This document shows positions 7,877 to 50,844 of a DNA stretch of 64,000 nucleotides, one piece after another. The position numbers and the translations under genes are program-made. How positions within the stretch are numbered: the stretch's first letter is position 1; the number at the start of each line of letters is the position of its first letter. Source of the DNA: an uncultured Gemmatimonadales bacterium (GTDB lineage: Bacteria; Gemmatimonadota; Gemmatimonadetes; Gemmatimonadales; GWC2-71-9); the NCBI GenBank assembly GCA_963798915.1, contig CAWCVB010000005.1, positions 25,291 through 89,290 of the forward strand, written 5' to 3'. The notes below the pieces were generated by a model. The model was not told the origin of the DNA, ran no database searches, and was given only the letters and a program-made list of their open reading frames with translations.

Positions 7877-7960
7877 AATGAGTCGAGGGTCAAGGGTCAA
7901 GGGTCGCGGGTCGGAGCTGCGCCATGGCTCTGTCCGTACAAGGCTCGGGGTGGCTCCGGA

Positions 7961-8200
7961 GCTGTCATCCCGAGCGCAGCGAGGGATCTTGCCCGCCGTG
8001 CTTCGGAGCCGGTTGAGTAGATCCTTCGCTTCGCTCAGCTGTCATCCCGAGCGCAGCGAGGGATCTTGCCCGCCGTGCTTCGGAGCCGGTTGAGTAGATC
8101 CTTCGCTTCGCTCAGCTGTCATCCCGAGCGCAGCGAGGGATCTTGCCCGCCGTGCTTCGGAGCCGGTTGAGTAGATCCTTCGCTTCGCTCAGGATGACAG
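7961..8200. repeat. Three identical 77-bp tandem units of a TGTCATCC...GGATGACA palindromic element
   Basis: Units start at 7961, 8038 and 8115; only the last carries the closing GGATGACA. Confidence 0.95.
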
Positions 8201-8209
8201 ATATTGTCT

Positions 8210-8285
8210 CCGACGACCGACGACCGACGACCGACGACCGCACGACCGCCGACCGACGACCGACGACCGACGACCGACGACCGCC
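8210..8285. repeat. Heptamer array (CGACGAC)n; C-rich partner of the GGTCRAG/GGTCGCG arm at 7880-7913
   Basis: About 10 units read directly. Confidence 0.9.
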
Positions 8286-8350
8286 GAGCCGCCGAGCCAA
8301 CGAGCCGCCGCAACCCTACATTGAACCTTTCCTTCTTCCGGAGACCCGCC

Positions 8351-23768: not shown

Positions 23769-23872
23769 GACGGCGAGACGGCGAGGCGGCAAGACGGCGA
23801 GGCGGCGAGTTGGCTAGTTGGCTAGTTGGCTAGTCGGCGAGAGGGCGAGTTGGCAAGACGGCAAGTTGGCGG
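23769..23872. repeat. 8-bp tandem array, 13 units (GACGGCGA/GTTGGCTA type); left arm of four-helix cassette 1
   Basis: Counted directly; begins 3 nt after the kinase stop. Confidence 0.92.
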
Positions 23873-23882
23873 CGCTGGTCCA

Positions 23883-24239
23883 TCATGGCGCACTCCGGAT
23901 GCTTCGGTGAAGGCCCCAGAGCAGGCGGCCGACTTCGTCGCACTCATTGAGCAGGCTACCGTCGCTCATTCGGGCATATTCGAGATCGCTCGCCAGCCTG
24001 AGCATGTACTCCACTTCCGCGTGCGACCCCGCAGCGATGTCGAGATAACGACGGAATTCCTTTGACCCTCTCTTGGCCGAGCCCTCGGCCACATTTGCTG
24101 CAATGGAGACCGCGGCGCGCCGAATCTGCGATGTGAGCCCAAATCGCTCGTCAGGAGGCCAGGCCTTCGAGACGGCGTAAATGCGCAGTACCAGCTGATG
24201 CGCCTTCTGCCACACGAGGAGGTCGAGATACGAAGCCAT
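23883..24239 (-). CDS. Four-helix-bundle protein (23S rRNA intervening-sequence protein / Avd-like family)
   Basis: YLDLLVWQKA..ERFGLTSQIRRAAVSIAANVAEG..EFRRYLDIAAGS..E family signature; 118 aa. Confidence 0.93.
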   Translation of the reverse strand: MASYLDLLVWQKAHQLVLRIYAVSKAWPPDERFGLTSQIRRAAVSIAANVAEGSAKRGSKEFRRYLDIAAGSHAEVEYMLRLASDLEYARMSDGSLLNECDEVGRLLWGLHRSIRSAP

Positions 24240-24319
24240 CCCCTAAGATGCCGTCTGCCGCGGTGACCTGGGTATCATTCTCGTGCAGGCCATACCCATG
24301 TCGCGCATTGCCTGGCCGC

Positions 24320-24443
24320 TCGCCGACTTGCCAACTCGCCGTCTTGCCGTCTCGCCGTCTCGCCGTCTCGCCGTCTTGCCGTCTTGCCGTCTCGCCGTCT
24401 CGCCGTCTCGCCGTCTCGCCGTCTCGCCAACTAGCCGCCTAGC
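24320..24443. repeat. 8-bp tandem array, 15 units (TCGCCGTC/TTGCCGTC); right arm of cassette 1, reverse complement of 23769-23872
   Basis: Counted directly. Confidence 0.92.
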
Positions 24444-33057: not shown

Positions 33058-33253
33058 CCGGGTCGCGGGTCGCGGGTCGCGGGTCGCGGGTCGCGGGTCG
33101 CGGGTCGTGGGTCGTGGGTCGTGGGTCGTGGGCCGATGACGGCGAGTGATGAGCTTTGGCCTGCCCATCCTGCCCATCCTGCCCATCCTGCCCATCCCGC
33201 CCATCCCGCCCATCCCGCCCGTCTTGCCCGTCCTGCCCGTCCTGCCCGTCCTG
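33058..33253. repeat. (GGGTCGC/T)~10 heptamer array followed by (CCCATCCYG/CCCGTCCTG)~10 nonamer array
   Basis: Read directly. Confidence 0.92.
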
Positions 33254-47352: not shown

Positions 47353-48194
47353 CGCCCTGGCTCATCGCCGCCATCGTGGGATTCCTGGCCGGCGCGCACG
47401 CCTCCATCTGGGGCATGTACAAGGATGCGCCGCACGAGGGATTCACCGTGCGCACGTTCATGCGCAGCATGCTCTTTGCCGCGGTGATCGGGGCGCTTGT
47501 CTGGCGGGTGACCGGGCTCTGGCCGGCGGATGCTGCCTCGGGTGTGCTCTTCTTCGGCGTGGTGTACGTGGTCGAGCGCGCCATCATGGAAGCGTACAAG
47601 ACCTTCTTCCGCGAGTCGGACCAGTCCAAGTACACCATCCCGATGCAGTTCGCGGTGTTCGGCAAGGTGGTCACCCATCGTGGGCTGCGGGCGCTGCTGG
47701 GACTCTGCTATCTCGGCATCATGCTGGTCACCGTCTGGCTCATCATCATCTTCCAGCGCATCATCGGCGGGCCGCCCCCGCTCTGGGCCATCTTCATCAT
47801 CGGCGCGGCCGGCGGCTGGATCTCGGCCTTTGGCGGAGCATGGAAGGATGCGCCCATCGAGGGATTCCAGATCCTCAAGTTCTTCCGCAGTCCGCTGATG
47901 GCGGGCACCTATGCGCTGCTGATGTCCCGGCTCACCGATGACCTGGTGTTCATCACCCTTGCGGCCGAGGGCTTCGTCATCGCCACGACCGAGACGTACA
48001 AGACCTTCTTCTTTCCCAGCAAGCCGCGCGGCAAGTTTGCCAACAAGCCGGTGATCTTTCCCGAGTGGCTCACGCTGCGGCAGTTCTTCGTGCCGCTCTA
48101 TGTCGCCATCTGGATCGGTGTGATCGCAGCTTATGTCGTGGCGATCGTCCGCCACCAGCAGGTCCTGCCCAGCGTGGTCTTTCCACAGGCGTGA
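47349..48194 (+). CDS. Hypothetical membrane protein with internal duplication
   Basis: Two copies of G..KDAP.EGF....F.RS...E.YKTFF; multiple TM helices; ATGA overlap. Confidence 0.8.
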   Translation: MTPWLIAAIVGFLAGAHASIWGMYKDAPHEGFTVRTFMRSMLFAAVIGALVWRVTGLWPADAASGVLFFGVVYVVERAIMEAYKTFFRESDQSKYTIPMQFAVFGKVVTHRGLRALLGLCYLGIMLVTVWLIIIFQRIIGGPPPLWAIFIIGAAGGWISAFGGAWKDAPIEGFQILKFFRSPLMAGTYALLMSRLTDDLVFITLAAEGFVIATTETYKTFFFPSKPRGKFANKPVIFPEWLTLRQFFVPLYVAIWIGVIAAYVVAIVRHQQVLPSVVFPQA

Positions 48195-48850
48195 TCCAGG
48201 GGGCCGCTGAAGCGGGCAAGTTCAGCGCCTTCGTGGTGACCTCGCTCTGGGTGCACGGGCCGTGGTCGCCCCTGCTGCCGGCCGCCTACGAGCCGGTGCT
48301 CATGCTCTACGGCAAGTGGTACCCGCCCTGGCTCGTCGCGGTCACCGGTGCCACGCTGAGCTGCATCGTCGAGTGGATCAACTACCGGGTCTACGACTGG
48401 ATCTCCGACCTCAAGCGGCTGGAAAACCTCAAGCACAAGGCCACCAGCGGCCGCTTTGTGCGGCTGTTCCAGAAGCAGCCCTTTCTGGTGGTCTGGATCT
48501 TTGCCTGGTCTCCGCTGCCCGACTGGGCCGCGCGGATCATGAGTGTGATCGCGGGCTACTCGATCTGGCGCTATGTGCTGGCGTTCTGGCTGGGAAGGCT
48601 GCCCAAGTTTCTCTTTCTCGCCTGGCTGGGCCAGAAGCTCCCACTCACGGCGCTGCAGCTCACCATCATCGCCGTGGCGGCAGTGATCGTGGGGTATGGG
48701 TGGGGATGGTGGAGGCGACGGGATGGGCGAGATGGGCAGGATGGGCGGATGGGCGGATGGGCAGGATGGGCGAGATGGGCAGGATGGGCGAGATGGGCAG
48801 GATGGGCGAGATGGGCAGGATGGACGGGGTGGGCAGGTCTCACGTTCTGA
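48191..48850 (+). CDS. VTT/DedA-like (SNARE-associated) membrane protein; C-terminus encoded by a repeat array
   Basis: GTGA overlap; SPLPDW..Y..AFWLGRLPKF; tail GWARWAGW comes from the nonamer array. Confidence 0.65.
   Translation: MIQGAAEAGKFSAFVVTSLWVHGPWSPLLPAAYEPVLMLYGKWYPPWLVAVTGATLSCIVEWINYRVYDWISDLKRLENLKHKATSGRFVRLFQKQPFLVVWIFAWSPLPDWAARIMSVIAGYSIWRYVLAFWLGRLPKFLFLAWLGQKLPLTALQLTIIAVAAVIVGYGWGWWRRRDGRDGQDGRMGGWAGWARWAGWARWAGWARWAGWTGWAGLTF
48722..48837. repeat. 9-bp tandem array, ~13 units (GATGGGCAG/GATGGGCGA); left arm of four-helix cassette 2
   Basis: Counted directly; two units are 8 bp. Confidence 0.92.
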
Positions 48851-49193
48851 GTGACCGATACAGCAGCCATGTGACTCGACCTGCGGCATCGCGGGCTGCT
48901 TCAATTGCTTGCCAGTCCGCCTCTCTGAGGAAGCCCAGATCTCGGGCAAGTTCCAGCTGGTAGCTGACCTCAGAGAGCGATCCGAGTGAGATGTCGAGAA
49001 ACCGGCGGAATTCCGCCTTTCCGCGCTTCGCGGATCCTTCGGCTATGTTCGTGGGCGCAGAGGCTGCTGCACGGCGTATTTGTGCCGTCAGCCCGTAGCG
49101 TTCGGTGGCGGGCCAAATCTCGGTCGCCCGATAGATCGCCAGCGCCAGTTCGTGACAGCGCTGCCACGCGATCAAGTTCTTGTATCGTTTCAT
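48840..49193 (-). CDS. Four-helix-bundle protein (23S rRNA IVS / Avd-like family), second paralog
   Basis: YKNLIAWQRC..ERYGLTAQIRRAAASAPTNIAEG..EFRRFLDISLGSLSE; 117 aa. Confidence 0.93.
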   Translation of the reverse strand: MKRYKNLIAWQRCHELALAIYRATEIWPATERYGLTAQIRRAAASAPTNIAEGSAKRGKAEFRRFLDISLGSLSEVSYQLELARDLGFLREADWQAIEAARDAAGRVTWLLYRSLRT

Positions 49194-49256
49194 GCTGCCA
49201 AGATCGCGGGTCGTTCGCTCCTGCCGAGCATCGAAATGCTTCACCTCGTACCAATC

Positions 49257-49346
49257 CTGCCCATCCCGCCCATCTCGCCCATCTCGCCCATCCCGCCCAT
49301 CCTGCCCATCCTGCCCATCCCGCCCATCCCGCCCATCTCGCCCATC
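49257..49346. repeat. 9-bp tandem array, 10 units (YYGCCCATC); right arm of cassette 2, reverse complement of 48722-48837
   Basis: Counted directly; ends 3 nt from the thrE stop. Confidence 0.92.
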
Positions 49347-49349
49347 CTC

Positions 49350-50573
49350 TCACCCAACTTGCCGCCTCACCGTCACCACATTTGCGATCAGGATACCGGC
49401 GACGATCGACACCGCGATCACGATCATCTTGAAGGCCGTCTCGATCCCGGAGACCACCTCGCGATCCATGAGCGCGGCGAGGCTGCGGAAGCCGACGCTG
49501 CCCGGCACCAGCAGCAGGATGCCAGGCACCAGATAGATCTGCGACGGCCGGTCCAGCAAGCGTGCGATGATGTTGCTGCCGCCACCCACCGCCAGCGCAC
49601 CCACGAACGATCCCAGGTCGGGACCAAAGACGATGGCGCCGAGCTGGCTGGCGTAGAATGCCAGCAGGCCCATCACCACGATCCAGGGCGCGTCCCTGGG
49701 TTCCGCCTTGAGCAGCACCACGAAGCCCAGTGGCGCCAGCAGCAGGACCACCGGAATGAGCCAGGACGGCGGGGCGGATGGCTGCAGGTTGGCGGACGCA
49801 CCGAACAGTTGGGCCGCGAGCGTATTGCCCAGCGCCACGCCGAAGGCGATCCCCAGGAAGGTCATGAACGCGGCGCTCATGCGGGCGGTGCCGGAAGCGA
49901 GGTGGCGGGTGGAGAGTTCGGTCATCGCCACGGTGAGCGTGAAGCCGGGCAGCAGCACGATGAGCCCGGCCAGCGTCGCGATGAAGACCGAATGGGGAAA
50001 GACATGACTCACCGCGCCGGCCAGGAACGCCGCCGCGAACGCGGCCATGGGCTCGAACACCCGTGCCACCGATGCGTAGCGTACCGCGCCGAGCGAGAGC
50101 AGGCCGATCACCAGTCCGAGGAACCCGCCCACCAGCATTTCCCTGGCGCCGCCGCCCAGGAACCGAGTCACGGTACCACTGGTCAGCGCAAAGGCCGCCA
50201 CCATCGCCCAGTTGCCGTACGTGGGCGGTGCCGCCGAGACCAGCGCCACCTGTTCGGTGCCGTCGCCAGGCGTCATGGTCCCCTTGAGCACCTCCACCAC
50301 GATCCGGTCGAGCTTGGCCAGCTTGCCGAGATCATGATCGCCGGGCTCCACCCGGATCATGTAGGTGCGCTGGCGATCGAGCTTGCCGAAGGAAGCGAAG
50401 ATGGAGGTCGGCGTGGAGAAGAACTGCGCCTCCATTCCCAGCTGGCGGGCGGCGAGTCCCAGGACATCCTCCAGCCGGCCCGCCTCGTAGCCGTAGCCAT
50501 GCAGCGCTCGACCCAGGGTGAGGATGAAATTCCCGGCGTCGGTGGGGAAGGAGTCGGGATCGGGTGAGGGCAT
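49350..50573 (-). CDS. thrE: Threonine/serine exporter (ThrE family)
   Basis: LGRALHGYG..RLED, FSTPTSI, IVLLPGFTLT.AMTEL...L.SG..R, ILLLVPGS; ~10 TM. Confidence 0.85.
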   Translation of the reverse strand: MPSPDPDSFPTDAGNFILTLGRALHGYGYEAGRLEDVLGLAARQLGMEAQFFSTPTSIFASFGKLDRQRTYMIRVEPGDHDLGKLAKLDRIVVEVLKGTMTPGDGTEQVALVSAAPPTYGNWAMVAAFALTSGTVTRFLGGGAREMLVGGFLGLVIGLLSLGAVRYASVARVFEPMAAFAAAFLAGAVSHVFPHSVFIATLAGLIVLLPGFTLTVAMTELSTRHLASGTARMSAAFMTFLGIAFGVALGNTLAAQLFGASANLQPSAPPSWLIPVVLLLAPLGFVVLLKAEPRDAPWIVVMGLLAFYASQLGAIVFGPDLGSFVGALAVGGGSNIIARLLDRPSQIYLVPGILLLVPGSVGFRSLAALMDREVVSGIETAFKMIVIAVSIVAGILIANVVTVRRQVG

Positions 50574-50582
50574 GGGGGAAAT

Positions 50583-50618
50583 AAGTCGGGAGGACGGGAA
50601 GACGGGAAGACGGGAGGA
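50583..50618. repeat. 8-bp array (AAGTCGGG/AAGACGGG); left arm around the Uma2 gene
   Basis: Reverse complement of 51421-51455. Confidence 0.8.
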
Positions 50619-50844
50619 AAGGGCGAAGCCCGTAGGGGCGGGTCTTCGACCCGCCCCACCGCCGGCACACGTCCCGGTGCCGACATGCATCCCGATGCCG
50701 CCCCCCAGAGGAAGAGGCGAGGGCCCGATCATCGCGTCATTGCGCGCCGTCATGCAGCAATGCGGTCACGCAACTGCCGAGCCGGGCCGCATCATGCGGC
50801 ATGTCCGCTTGCCATTTCCCGACCGCCGAGCGTACCGTATGGGC

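Follow-up and report, generated by a model that had tools for sequence, protein, structure and literature searches.

We analysed a 64,000-nt stretch of DNA from an uncultured Gemmatimonadales bacterium (GenBank assembly GCA_963798915.1, contig CAWCVB010000005.1, positions 25,291 to 89,290), referred to here as the window. At 48719-49347 on the minus strand, the gene for a 117-aa four-helix-bundle protein lies between two arrays of a 9-nt repeat, the order being a G-rich array, a 60-nt leader, the 117-aa open reading frame (ORF) and a complementary array. We call this arrangement a cassette and its two arrays arms. Arrays were located using Tandem Repeats Finder (TRF). The genome of the window is designated as G000, the sister genomes as G001-G009, and the compared loci by L numbers. 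The features of the locus, its neighbours and a second cassette in the window (cassette 1) are as follows.

49254..49347, minus strand: upstream arm, 10.4 tandem units, G-rich, sense strand GATGGGCRR (TRF, pattern matches at 49259-49346, sequence)
49194..49253, minus strand: leader, 60 nt between the upstream arm and the ATG, with the positional motifs of the family
48840..49193, minus strand: coding sequence, 117 aa (coordinates include the stop), basic PF05635 / TIGR02436 four-helix-bundle protein, purifying selection
48719..48837, minus strand: downstream arm, about 13 units, sense strand YYGCCCATC, complementary to the upstream arm (TRF and pattern search)
48065..48850, plus strand: gene for a VTT-domain membrane protein, convergent neighbour, frame running through the downstream arm
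49350..50753, minus strand: gene for a ThrE-family exporter, upstream neighbour, with 2 nt between its stop and the upstream arm (outer end)
23769..24428, minus strand: cassette 1, a 118-aa paralog (24239-23883) between 8-mer arms of the GACGGCGA family

TRF reported a 9-nt array at 48719-48834 with 13.1 copies and 80% matches, which as a period of 18 extended over 48722-48837 with 91% matches, and a complementary 9-nt array at 49254-49347 with 10.4 copies and 91% matches. Two units of the array at 48719-48834 are only 8 nt long (GATGGGCG). A pattern of three GATGGGCNN units with at most one mismatch had 29 matches in the window and none in 100 shuffles. The two arms hold 15 of these matches, 7 in 48722-48825 on the plus strand and 8 in 49259-49346 on the minus strand. 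The full ORF (48840..49244, minus strand) opens at a GTG and has 134 aa, and the family match begins at an internal ATG (49193), leaving 117 aa. Measured from TRF boundaries, the gap between the upstream arm and the ATG is 60 nt, and that between the stop and the downstream arm is 5 nt, or 2 nt by eye. The corresponding distances in cassette 1 are 75 and 11 nt, and the two proteins are 52% identical. The VTT-domain gene (plus strand) and the ThrE gene (minus strand) are convergent, with the 9-mer cassette between them. The original prediction, made from the letters of the window, had described a 117-aa gene flanked by about 13 GATGGGCRR units and by complementary units, with the geometry of cassette 1 and a position between convergent 3' ends. 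TRF (10.4 complementary copies) and the pattern search confirmed the flanking units, and the measured distances bear out the geometry.

The VTT-domain gene stops at 48850, and a tail of about 40 residues is encoded by the repeat arm (48700-48850, plus strand). Its orthologs in G008 and G004 stop shortly past the last membrane helix and have no repeat-encoded tail.

PF05635/TIGR02436 is a very common bacterial family with solved structures, including pentamers, and we know of no function for it outside diversity-generating retroelements (DGRs). The 117-aa protein matched PF05635 with an E-value of 4.2e-33 (114.2 bits, cut-off 33.8) and TIGR02436 with 106.4 bits (cut-off 24). Its closest solved structure is XCC0516 (PDB 2GSC, an entry with five chains; E 2.4e-26, residues 4-104). 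The motif GxxRxxxSxxxNxxE, which is quoted for PF05635 proteins in an excerpt of PMC3936711, was present; among 28 aligned proteins, R41, N49, E52 and G53 were invariant and S45 was at least 90% conserved. The isoelectric point is 9.9 for the 117-aa protein, with a median of 9.7 in the family and values above 8 in 81 of 92 proteins. The four-helix-bundle gene is under purifying selection, with a ratio of nonsynonymous to synonymous substitution rates (dN/dS) of 0.073 and a dS of 0.79 against the G004 ortholog.

Recurrence of the cassette and inheritance of its repeat unit

The G000 assembly comprises 3.3 Mb in 17 contigs with 66% G+C and is 84.8% complete. In it, tblastn, phmmer and a profile search found the same eight paralogs. 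All eight lay between inverted, complementary array pairs with arms 416-443 nt apart, and their arm units were different 7-, 8- or 9-mers. The copy at C10:14821 has a weak downstream arm, which is overlapped by an altered C-terminus. The family was also found in 25 of 30 relatives from the order (26 of 31 genomes counting G000). From these relatives, 89 further loci were taken in; three had no profile match, and the analysis retained 92 proteins with a length of 100 aa or more.

Among these 92 cassettes, an upstream arm was recognisable in 80, a downstream arm in 75 and both in 70. The units of the two arms agreed exactly in 26 of the 70 and with one mismatch in a further 30, giving 56 matching cassettes, compared to 122 of 4830 (2.5%) mismatched partners. 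Independently of consensus units, the two arms of a cassette shared at least ten 8-mers in 49 of 86 cases, compared to 1.3% of mismatched partners. The geometry was uniform, with a median of 75 nt from the end of the upstream arm to the start codon (interquartile range (IQR) 66-86) and of 6 nt from the stop to the downstream arm (IQR 0-19). The median copy number was 5.3 units in the upstream arm and 4.4 in the downstream arm. A second, independent sample consisted of 80 named records from many phyla, found with a profile built from eight close proteins. Here, the two arms shared at least five 8-mers in 47 of 73 loci with full flanks, including 27 of 47 loci in records not titled Gemmatimonadota. 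These results demonstrate that the cassette is real and recurrent. The earlier claim that each cassette pairs matching arms more often than chance would allow therefore held, both in the eight G000 paralogs and in the 56 of 70 cassettes.

The leaders of 90 cassettes were also compared. GGT[AT][AC] was found at -40 to -36 in 36 of the 90, with a second peak at -60 to -55. An A/T-rich box lies at -11 to -6 (A at -11/-10, T at -7/-6), C occupies -1 in 63 of the 90, and no Shine-Dalgarno-like run was seen in these leaders. The leader of the 9-mer cassette too has GGTAC about 40 nt upstream, the A/T-rich box and C at -1. Judging from these positions, the leader is promoter-like; it may be a promoter peculiar to the lineage, with leaderless initiation at the ATG.

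The polarity of Gemmatimonadales cassettes is strict: on either strand, the G-rich arm came first in 80, the C-rich arm in 4, and 3 were ties. The order in other phyla was 25 against 19. A telomerase-like origin of this polarity was considered and dropped, since other phyla are split in this way and the G000 assembly yielded no reverse transcriptase.

The heptamer AGCT[AG][TA]C / AGCTGAC formed the upstream arm at L124, L129, L130, L132, L137, L145, L146, L148, L150, L180 and L181. The records with this arm are titled Desulfobaccales, Cyanobacteriota, Geothrix, Chloroflexota, Methylobacillus, Nitrospinota and Acidobacteriota. This spread points to whole cassettes having passed between phyla, or to a common specificity.

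It had been proposed that a tree of the paralogs be built and the flanking repeats mapped on it, a correlation between clade and repeat being expected if each paralog is coupled to its own repeat family. We mapped repeat period and unit family on a maximum-likelihood tree of the 92 proteins, counting the changes and comparing them with 1000 label shuffles. The period changed 8 times, compared to a shuffle mean of 24.1 and minimum of 18. The unit family changed 43 times, where 36 is the least possible, compared to a shuffle mean of 58.7 and minimum of 55. The correlation is thus present. The 117-aa protein clusters with those of other 9-mer cassettes and is closest to L034 in G004 (90% identity), which likewise has GATGGGC arms. 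In the named records, a period of 8 or 9 nt was found at 21 of 28 Gemmatimonad-titled loci, which are closest to the 8/9-mer clade, and a period of 7 nt at 41 of 52 loci from other phyla.

Since kin share labels by descent, site was separated from clade by comparing pairs of cassettes at different sites. The same unit was found in 7 of 9 pairs with protein identity of at least 80%, in 19 of 106 pairs at 60-80%, in 22 of 582 pairs at 45-60% and in 19 of 2742 pairs below 45%. These results show that arm unit and period track the protein clade and not the chromosomal site. As unit and period follow the clade while the same site holds different arms, the arms go with the gene. The coupling of each paralog to its own repeat family therefore stands as co-inheritance, on the tree and in the different-site pairs; a clade-repeat correlation of this kind is by itself no proof that the protein recognises its repeat.

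At one shared site, the proteins of L037 (G005) and L042 (G008) were 93% identical and their arm units differed, AGACGGTCG against GGTCAAGAT. To judge from this pair, the arms of a cassette can diverge more rapidly than its protein and still remain related to each other.

Duplication, inversion and replacement of cassettes

Three copies in G000, at three loci with unrelated flanks, shared 91.5-93.2% identity. Their homology extended from 115-146 nt before the start codon to 385-399 nt after it, that is, from inside one arm to inside the other. These results show that arms, leader and gene duplicate as one unit. Cassettes also flip in place. L046 and L047 (G006 and G008) have collinear flanks and an inverted cassette with 88-89% identity and breakpoints in the arms, and the orientation also differs at the sites of L006/L032 and L029/L057. 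The 9-mer cassette lies just downstream of ThrE in G000, and the 90%-identical L034 (G004:C340) directly precedes the ThrE start codon and has a divergent response-regulator gene next to it, on a contig of 3.5 kb for which misassembly at the repeats is possible.

Unrelated cassettes replace one another at fixed intergenic sites. G000_C3_116212 and L058 match in both flanks and have 38% protein identity and different units. Protein identity was 29-35% among L011, L020 and L063, which share a site, and 35-36% between L032 and its same-site counterparts L051 and L061. The spacer between the VTT-domain and ThrE genes varied likewise among the sister genomes. In G008 and G007 it holds inverted 8-mer pairs without a gene, from two other unit families. 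In G004 (L093, G004:C224) and G005 (L094, G005:C44) it holds a gene resembling the tyrosine transposase associated with repetitive extragenic palindromic (REP) sequences, together with palindromes and a short 9-mer remnant adjoining the ThrE stop; G002 has a decayed version of this spacer. In G009, 9-mer arms of another family surround another gene, and in G003 the spacer is empty.

[quoted passage not shown] No recombinase or transposase gene was found within the cassette, where the four-helix-bundle gene is the only ORF; the genome was not searched for transposases acting in trans.

With roughly an even chance (about 0.5), we consider the locus to be one copy of a self-contained, DNA-level 'foldback-like' cassette with the basic PF05635 protein as its sole trans-acting product. 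Such a cassette would consist, in order, of a G-rich tandem-repeat arm, a promoter-like leader of 60-80 nt, the basic four-helix-bundle gene and a complementary C-rich arm. The protein, probably a pentamer by homology with XCC0516 and Avd, would bind nucleic acid bearing the unit of its own arms and would be the one product of the element acting in trans. Gene-less arrays would be arms left behind or seeded by cassettes. A more specific form of this idea is tentative. TRAP reads spaced triplets, and by analogy each paralog might be a pentamer that reads its own 7-, 8- or 9-nt tandem unit in a sequence-specific and periodic manner, with one unit per subunit, and drives the creation or spread of the arrays.

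Solo arrays and alternative explanations

G000 has 581 arrays of 7-9-nt period, of which 17 are cassette arms and 564 are solo arrays. The consensus unit, allowing rotation and either strand, equalled an arm unit of some of the 92 cassettes in 326 of the 564 solo arrays, compared to a mean of 37 and a maximum of 131 in composition-preserving shuffles. In 156 of the 564, the unit was that of one of the eight G000 cassettes (shuffle mean 5.9, maximum 47). Array density was 15-30 per Mb in all four same-family relatives without a PF05635 match (samples of 108-304 kb) and 162-310 per Mb in all four genomes with the gene (samples of 93-97 kb for two, a 197-kb sample for the third and the whole genome for the fourth). 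The three genomes with the cognate cassette had the three highest counts of GAGCTGN arrays among ten genomes. For GACAGNTG and 9-mer arrays, the cassette-bearing genomes ranked first and third.

The original prediction had counted ten or more solo 9-mer arrays in the window and proposed them as non-autonomous derivatives of the cassette. Only seven arrays of the same unit were found at the stringency used here (17678, 20568, 24739, 33163-33223, 40047, 43117 and 52211), and other 9-mer families are present. The idea of derivatives receives indirect support from the shared unit vocabulary and from the array-poor relatives that lack the gene; the unrelated interiors, the mixed flanks, the sisters in which no cognate cassette was found and the lack of clustering, all described below, run counter to it.

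A palindrome-ended element (CGTCATTCCCGCG ... CGCGGGGGTGACG), about 115 nt long, was found in 38 places in G000 (for example, C2:335149-335267 and C5:120968-121081, both outside the window), with partial copies elsewhere. It is nearly always flanked by arrays, G-rich on the left and C-rich on the right. The possibility that gene-less 9-mer pairs are internally deleted cassettes was rejected, as their spacers share at most 9 nt with the cassette interior.

Solo arrays also have a polarity at gene ends in G000. Those abutting a gene 3' end are G-rich on the sense strand of the gene in 156 cases against 30, and those near 5' ends are C-rich in 70 against 20, with crude gene calls based on G+C at third codon positions and with 158 of the 564 arrays dropped because they lay inside called genes. 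Elsewhere in the window, TRF reported three perfect tandem 77-nt units at 7960-8192 (100% matches, score 466). Each of them contains a palindrome, and heptamer arrays lie beyond them at 8210-8303.

Several results weigh against the foldback-like reading. The compared genomes are kin, and the density comparison takes in eight genomes with samples of 93-304 kb. Co-inheritance alone accounts for the clade-repeat correlation. G001, G002, G005, G006 and G008 are rich in 9-mer arrays (55-172 pattern matches), and no cognate cassette was found in their assemblies, which are 69-91% complete and break at repeats; G005 has 43 GACAGNTG arrays and is likewise without the cognate cassette. Cognate solo arrays did not cluster within 30 kb of a cassette (29 against 24 expected, p 0.18). 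The gene-less 9-mer pairs enclose the unrelated 115-nt palindromic element, and the arrays around that element are often from two different unit families. In other lineages, 0 of 80 loci with four GGGAATC units had a PF05635-like ORF within 800 nt, with a profile built from the eight G000 paralogs alone that could miss distant members, and 2 of 80 had an inverted pair. No target-site duplication was identified, and none is readable at the outer ends of repetitive arms. Nor did we identify a catalytic gene or a pair of empty and filled sites with sharp ends, so that the term 'mobile' is drawn from comparative patterns only.

Alternatively, the arrays may have come first. They would then be host sequences that arose by slippage and were kept as terminators, insulators or G-quadruplex formers, and a module of leader and ORF would insert, as other small elements do, into the loops of pre-existing array hairpins. 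Matching arms would follow if each clade targeted one kind of array, or if arms were homogenised after insertion. We regard this explanation as unlikely. The excess of arrays over cassette arms (564 against 17), the other cargo of gene-less inverted pairs (the 115-nt element in 38 places and another gene in G009) and the absence of the gene near all 80 GGGAATC arrays elsewhere are in its favour. So is the VTT|ThrE site, with its gene-less 8-mer pairs in G008 and G007 and its REP-associated transposase gene and 9-mer remnant in G004 and G005. However, the homology between copies at different loci takes in the arms and stops at their outer edges, same-site cassettes differ in their arms, and relatives without the gene are array-poor, which would be unexpected if arrays were an independent property of the host.

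The sense RNA of the cassette is predicted to fold with its arms paired over about 100 bp (-395.8 kcal/mol, compared to -275 +/- 6.5 in 20 shuffles, z -18.7). The cassette could thus be an RNA element resembling the intervening sequences (IVSs) of rRNA. The arms of read-through transcripts would pair, RNase III would cut the stem, the mRNAs of the neighbours would be ended or processed and the ORF RNA would be released. The S23p ORF of the Coxiella 23S IVS, which is excised by RNase III, belongs to the same family (excerpt of PMC4990558). Between convergent 3' ends, a bidirectional stem would be transcribed from either side, and read-through from either neighbour would still carry both arms; the fixed polarity of solo arrays at gene 3' ends (156 against 30) also agrees with this explanation. 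However, the stem would form equally as DNA, and a promoter-like leader between the upstream arm and the ATG would give the gene an mRNA without the 5' arm. The locus lies outside rRNA genes, and no Rfam family, sigma-70 consensus site or intrinsic terminator was found in 48500-49500. There was no wobble-pair strand asymmetry in 71 cassettes, the sense duplex being the stabler in 32 and the antisense duplex in 39, and no excess of G.U pairs over A.C mismatches on the sense strand (130 against 132). The orientation of cassettes relative to their neighbours is free. The lack of G.U asymmetry, the promoter-like leader inside the arms and the free orientation argue against a stem selected in the RNA of the gene itself. 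Since no sense-strand RNA signal was found, a DNA-level foldback-like cassette is favoured over an RNA stem of the rRNA-IVS type, and we consider the latter doubtful.

The protein might instead be an ordinary host or defence regulator that binds nucleic acid, the arrays being its operators or RNA sites with one regulon per paralog, and turnover coming from horizontal exchange, with homologous recombination in the flanking genes, instead of from mobility of the element. Strong purifying selection, the basic protein and the fixed polarity of arrays at gene ends are compatible with such a role, and excerpts of two papers report PF05635 genes within cas loci (PMC3936711) and place Avd, a DGR accessory protein, in a PF05635-type family (PMC10053308). 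Three near-identical copies at unrelated loci of one genome, and the same cassette on opposite sides of ThrE in two species, make this explanation very improbable. In addition, no defence genes were noted beside the 9-mer cassette, where no scan against a library of defence systems was made. Chance placement of the gene between two arrays, for which the 581 arrays in G000 leave room, is refuted by the eight of eight paralogs in same-family inverted arrays at a fixed distance and by the matching arms of 56 of 70 cassettes, compared to 2.5% of mismatched partners.

If the protein family and the arrays belong together as the foldback-like cassette implies, both could be tested by simple binding and mobility assays, and cross-specificity could be studied within the genus, whose paralogs with 7-, 8- and 9-nt units form a natural matrix. 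ORF-bearing rRNA IVSs would then be one special landing place of a far wider cassette family. If the tentative unit-reader idea were also true, the cassette would be a transposase-free, protein-guided element that propagates repeats, and this would account both for rRNA IVSs with ORFs and for the heptamer and short tandemly repeated repetitive (STRR) arrays of many phyla. For annotation, the cassette explains contig breaks, repeat-encoded C-terminal tails such as that of the VTT-domain gene, and the rapid turnover of intergenic spacers.

Comparison with known systems

IVSs in 23S rRNA occur in Leptospira as well as in Coxiella. According to an excerpt of PMC4990558, the IVS of Coxiella burnetii is 428 nt long, carries the S23p ORF and is excised by RNase III. 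The cassette resembles the ORF-bearing 23S IVS in its PF05635 protein and in its small ORF enclosed by complementary stem-forming termini, although the stem is a predicted one here, and such IVSs are regarded as selfish, horizontally acquired elements, a further likeness. Unlike them, the cassette lies outside an rRNA gene, between two protein-coding genes, in a region (48500-49500) without an Rfam match, and the 7-9-nt tandem units of its arms are particular to the protein clade. It also differs in its promoter-like leader, in purifying selection and in that no sense-strand RNA signal was found.

Avd is pentameric and basic, and it binds reverse transcriptase and RNA. The 117-aa protein is similar in being small and basic and in belonging to a homologous four-helix-bundle fold family. 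We rejected its identity with a DGR Avd protein. The score against the Avd equivalog NF033474 was 19 bits, far below the cut-off of 80, no PF00078 reverse transcriptase was found in the 84.8%-complete G000 assembly (0 matches), no template/variable repeat was found, and the neighbours are the VTT-domain and ThrE genes.

Intergenic tandem arrays of 7-9 nt have been described repeatedly, to our knowledge with no cause given, and the STRR repeats of cyanobacteria are intergenic short tandem arrays. Rehm et al. (2015, PMC4692102, excerpt) described the G-rich heptameric tandem repeats GGGAATC of Xanthomonas and GGGGAYT of Nostoc, including convergent inverted pairs, and TAACTGA heptamers are described in an excerpt of PMC4679880. 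The arrays examined here are similar to those of Rehm et al. and to STRR repeats in being intergenic, in having G-rich units of 7-9 nt, often in convergent pairs capable of forming stem-loops, and in varying in length between relatives. Unlike in the arrays of Rehm et al., many unit families coexist here and each is tied to a protein clade; the excerpt of PMC4692102 has no mention of a four-helix-bundle or IVS protein.

In eukaryotic foldback elements, the terminal inverted repeats are built from short tandem repeats. The cassette is similar to these elements and to MITEs in its long inverted arms of tandem units, in the unequal and variable arm lengths and in the inversion between arms, and gene-less copies far outnumber coding copies in both. 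The cassette differs in having no known transposase and no identified target-site duplication, and in its prokaryotic host.

XCC0516 of Xanthomonas campestris (2GSC) is homologous to the 117-aa protein, and the GxxRxxxSxxxNxxE motif corresponds to R41, S45, N49 and E52, which are invariant or nearly invariant here; we know of no function for XCC0516 either. The protein family and its pentameric structures, Avd, ORF-bearing rRNA IVSs, heptamer arrays and the presence of PF05635 genes in cas loci were already known, and our full-text literature searches found no paper linking the PF05635/TIGR02436 family with flanking tandem-repeat arms. New in this study are the quantitative test of clade against unit, the separation of site from clade, the in-place inversions, the array-poor relatives without the gene and the negative test for strand asymmetry. 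Set beside these systems, the cassette is IVS-like but lies outside rRNA, and the tandem units that make up its arms are specific to the clade of its protein.

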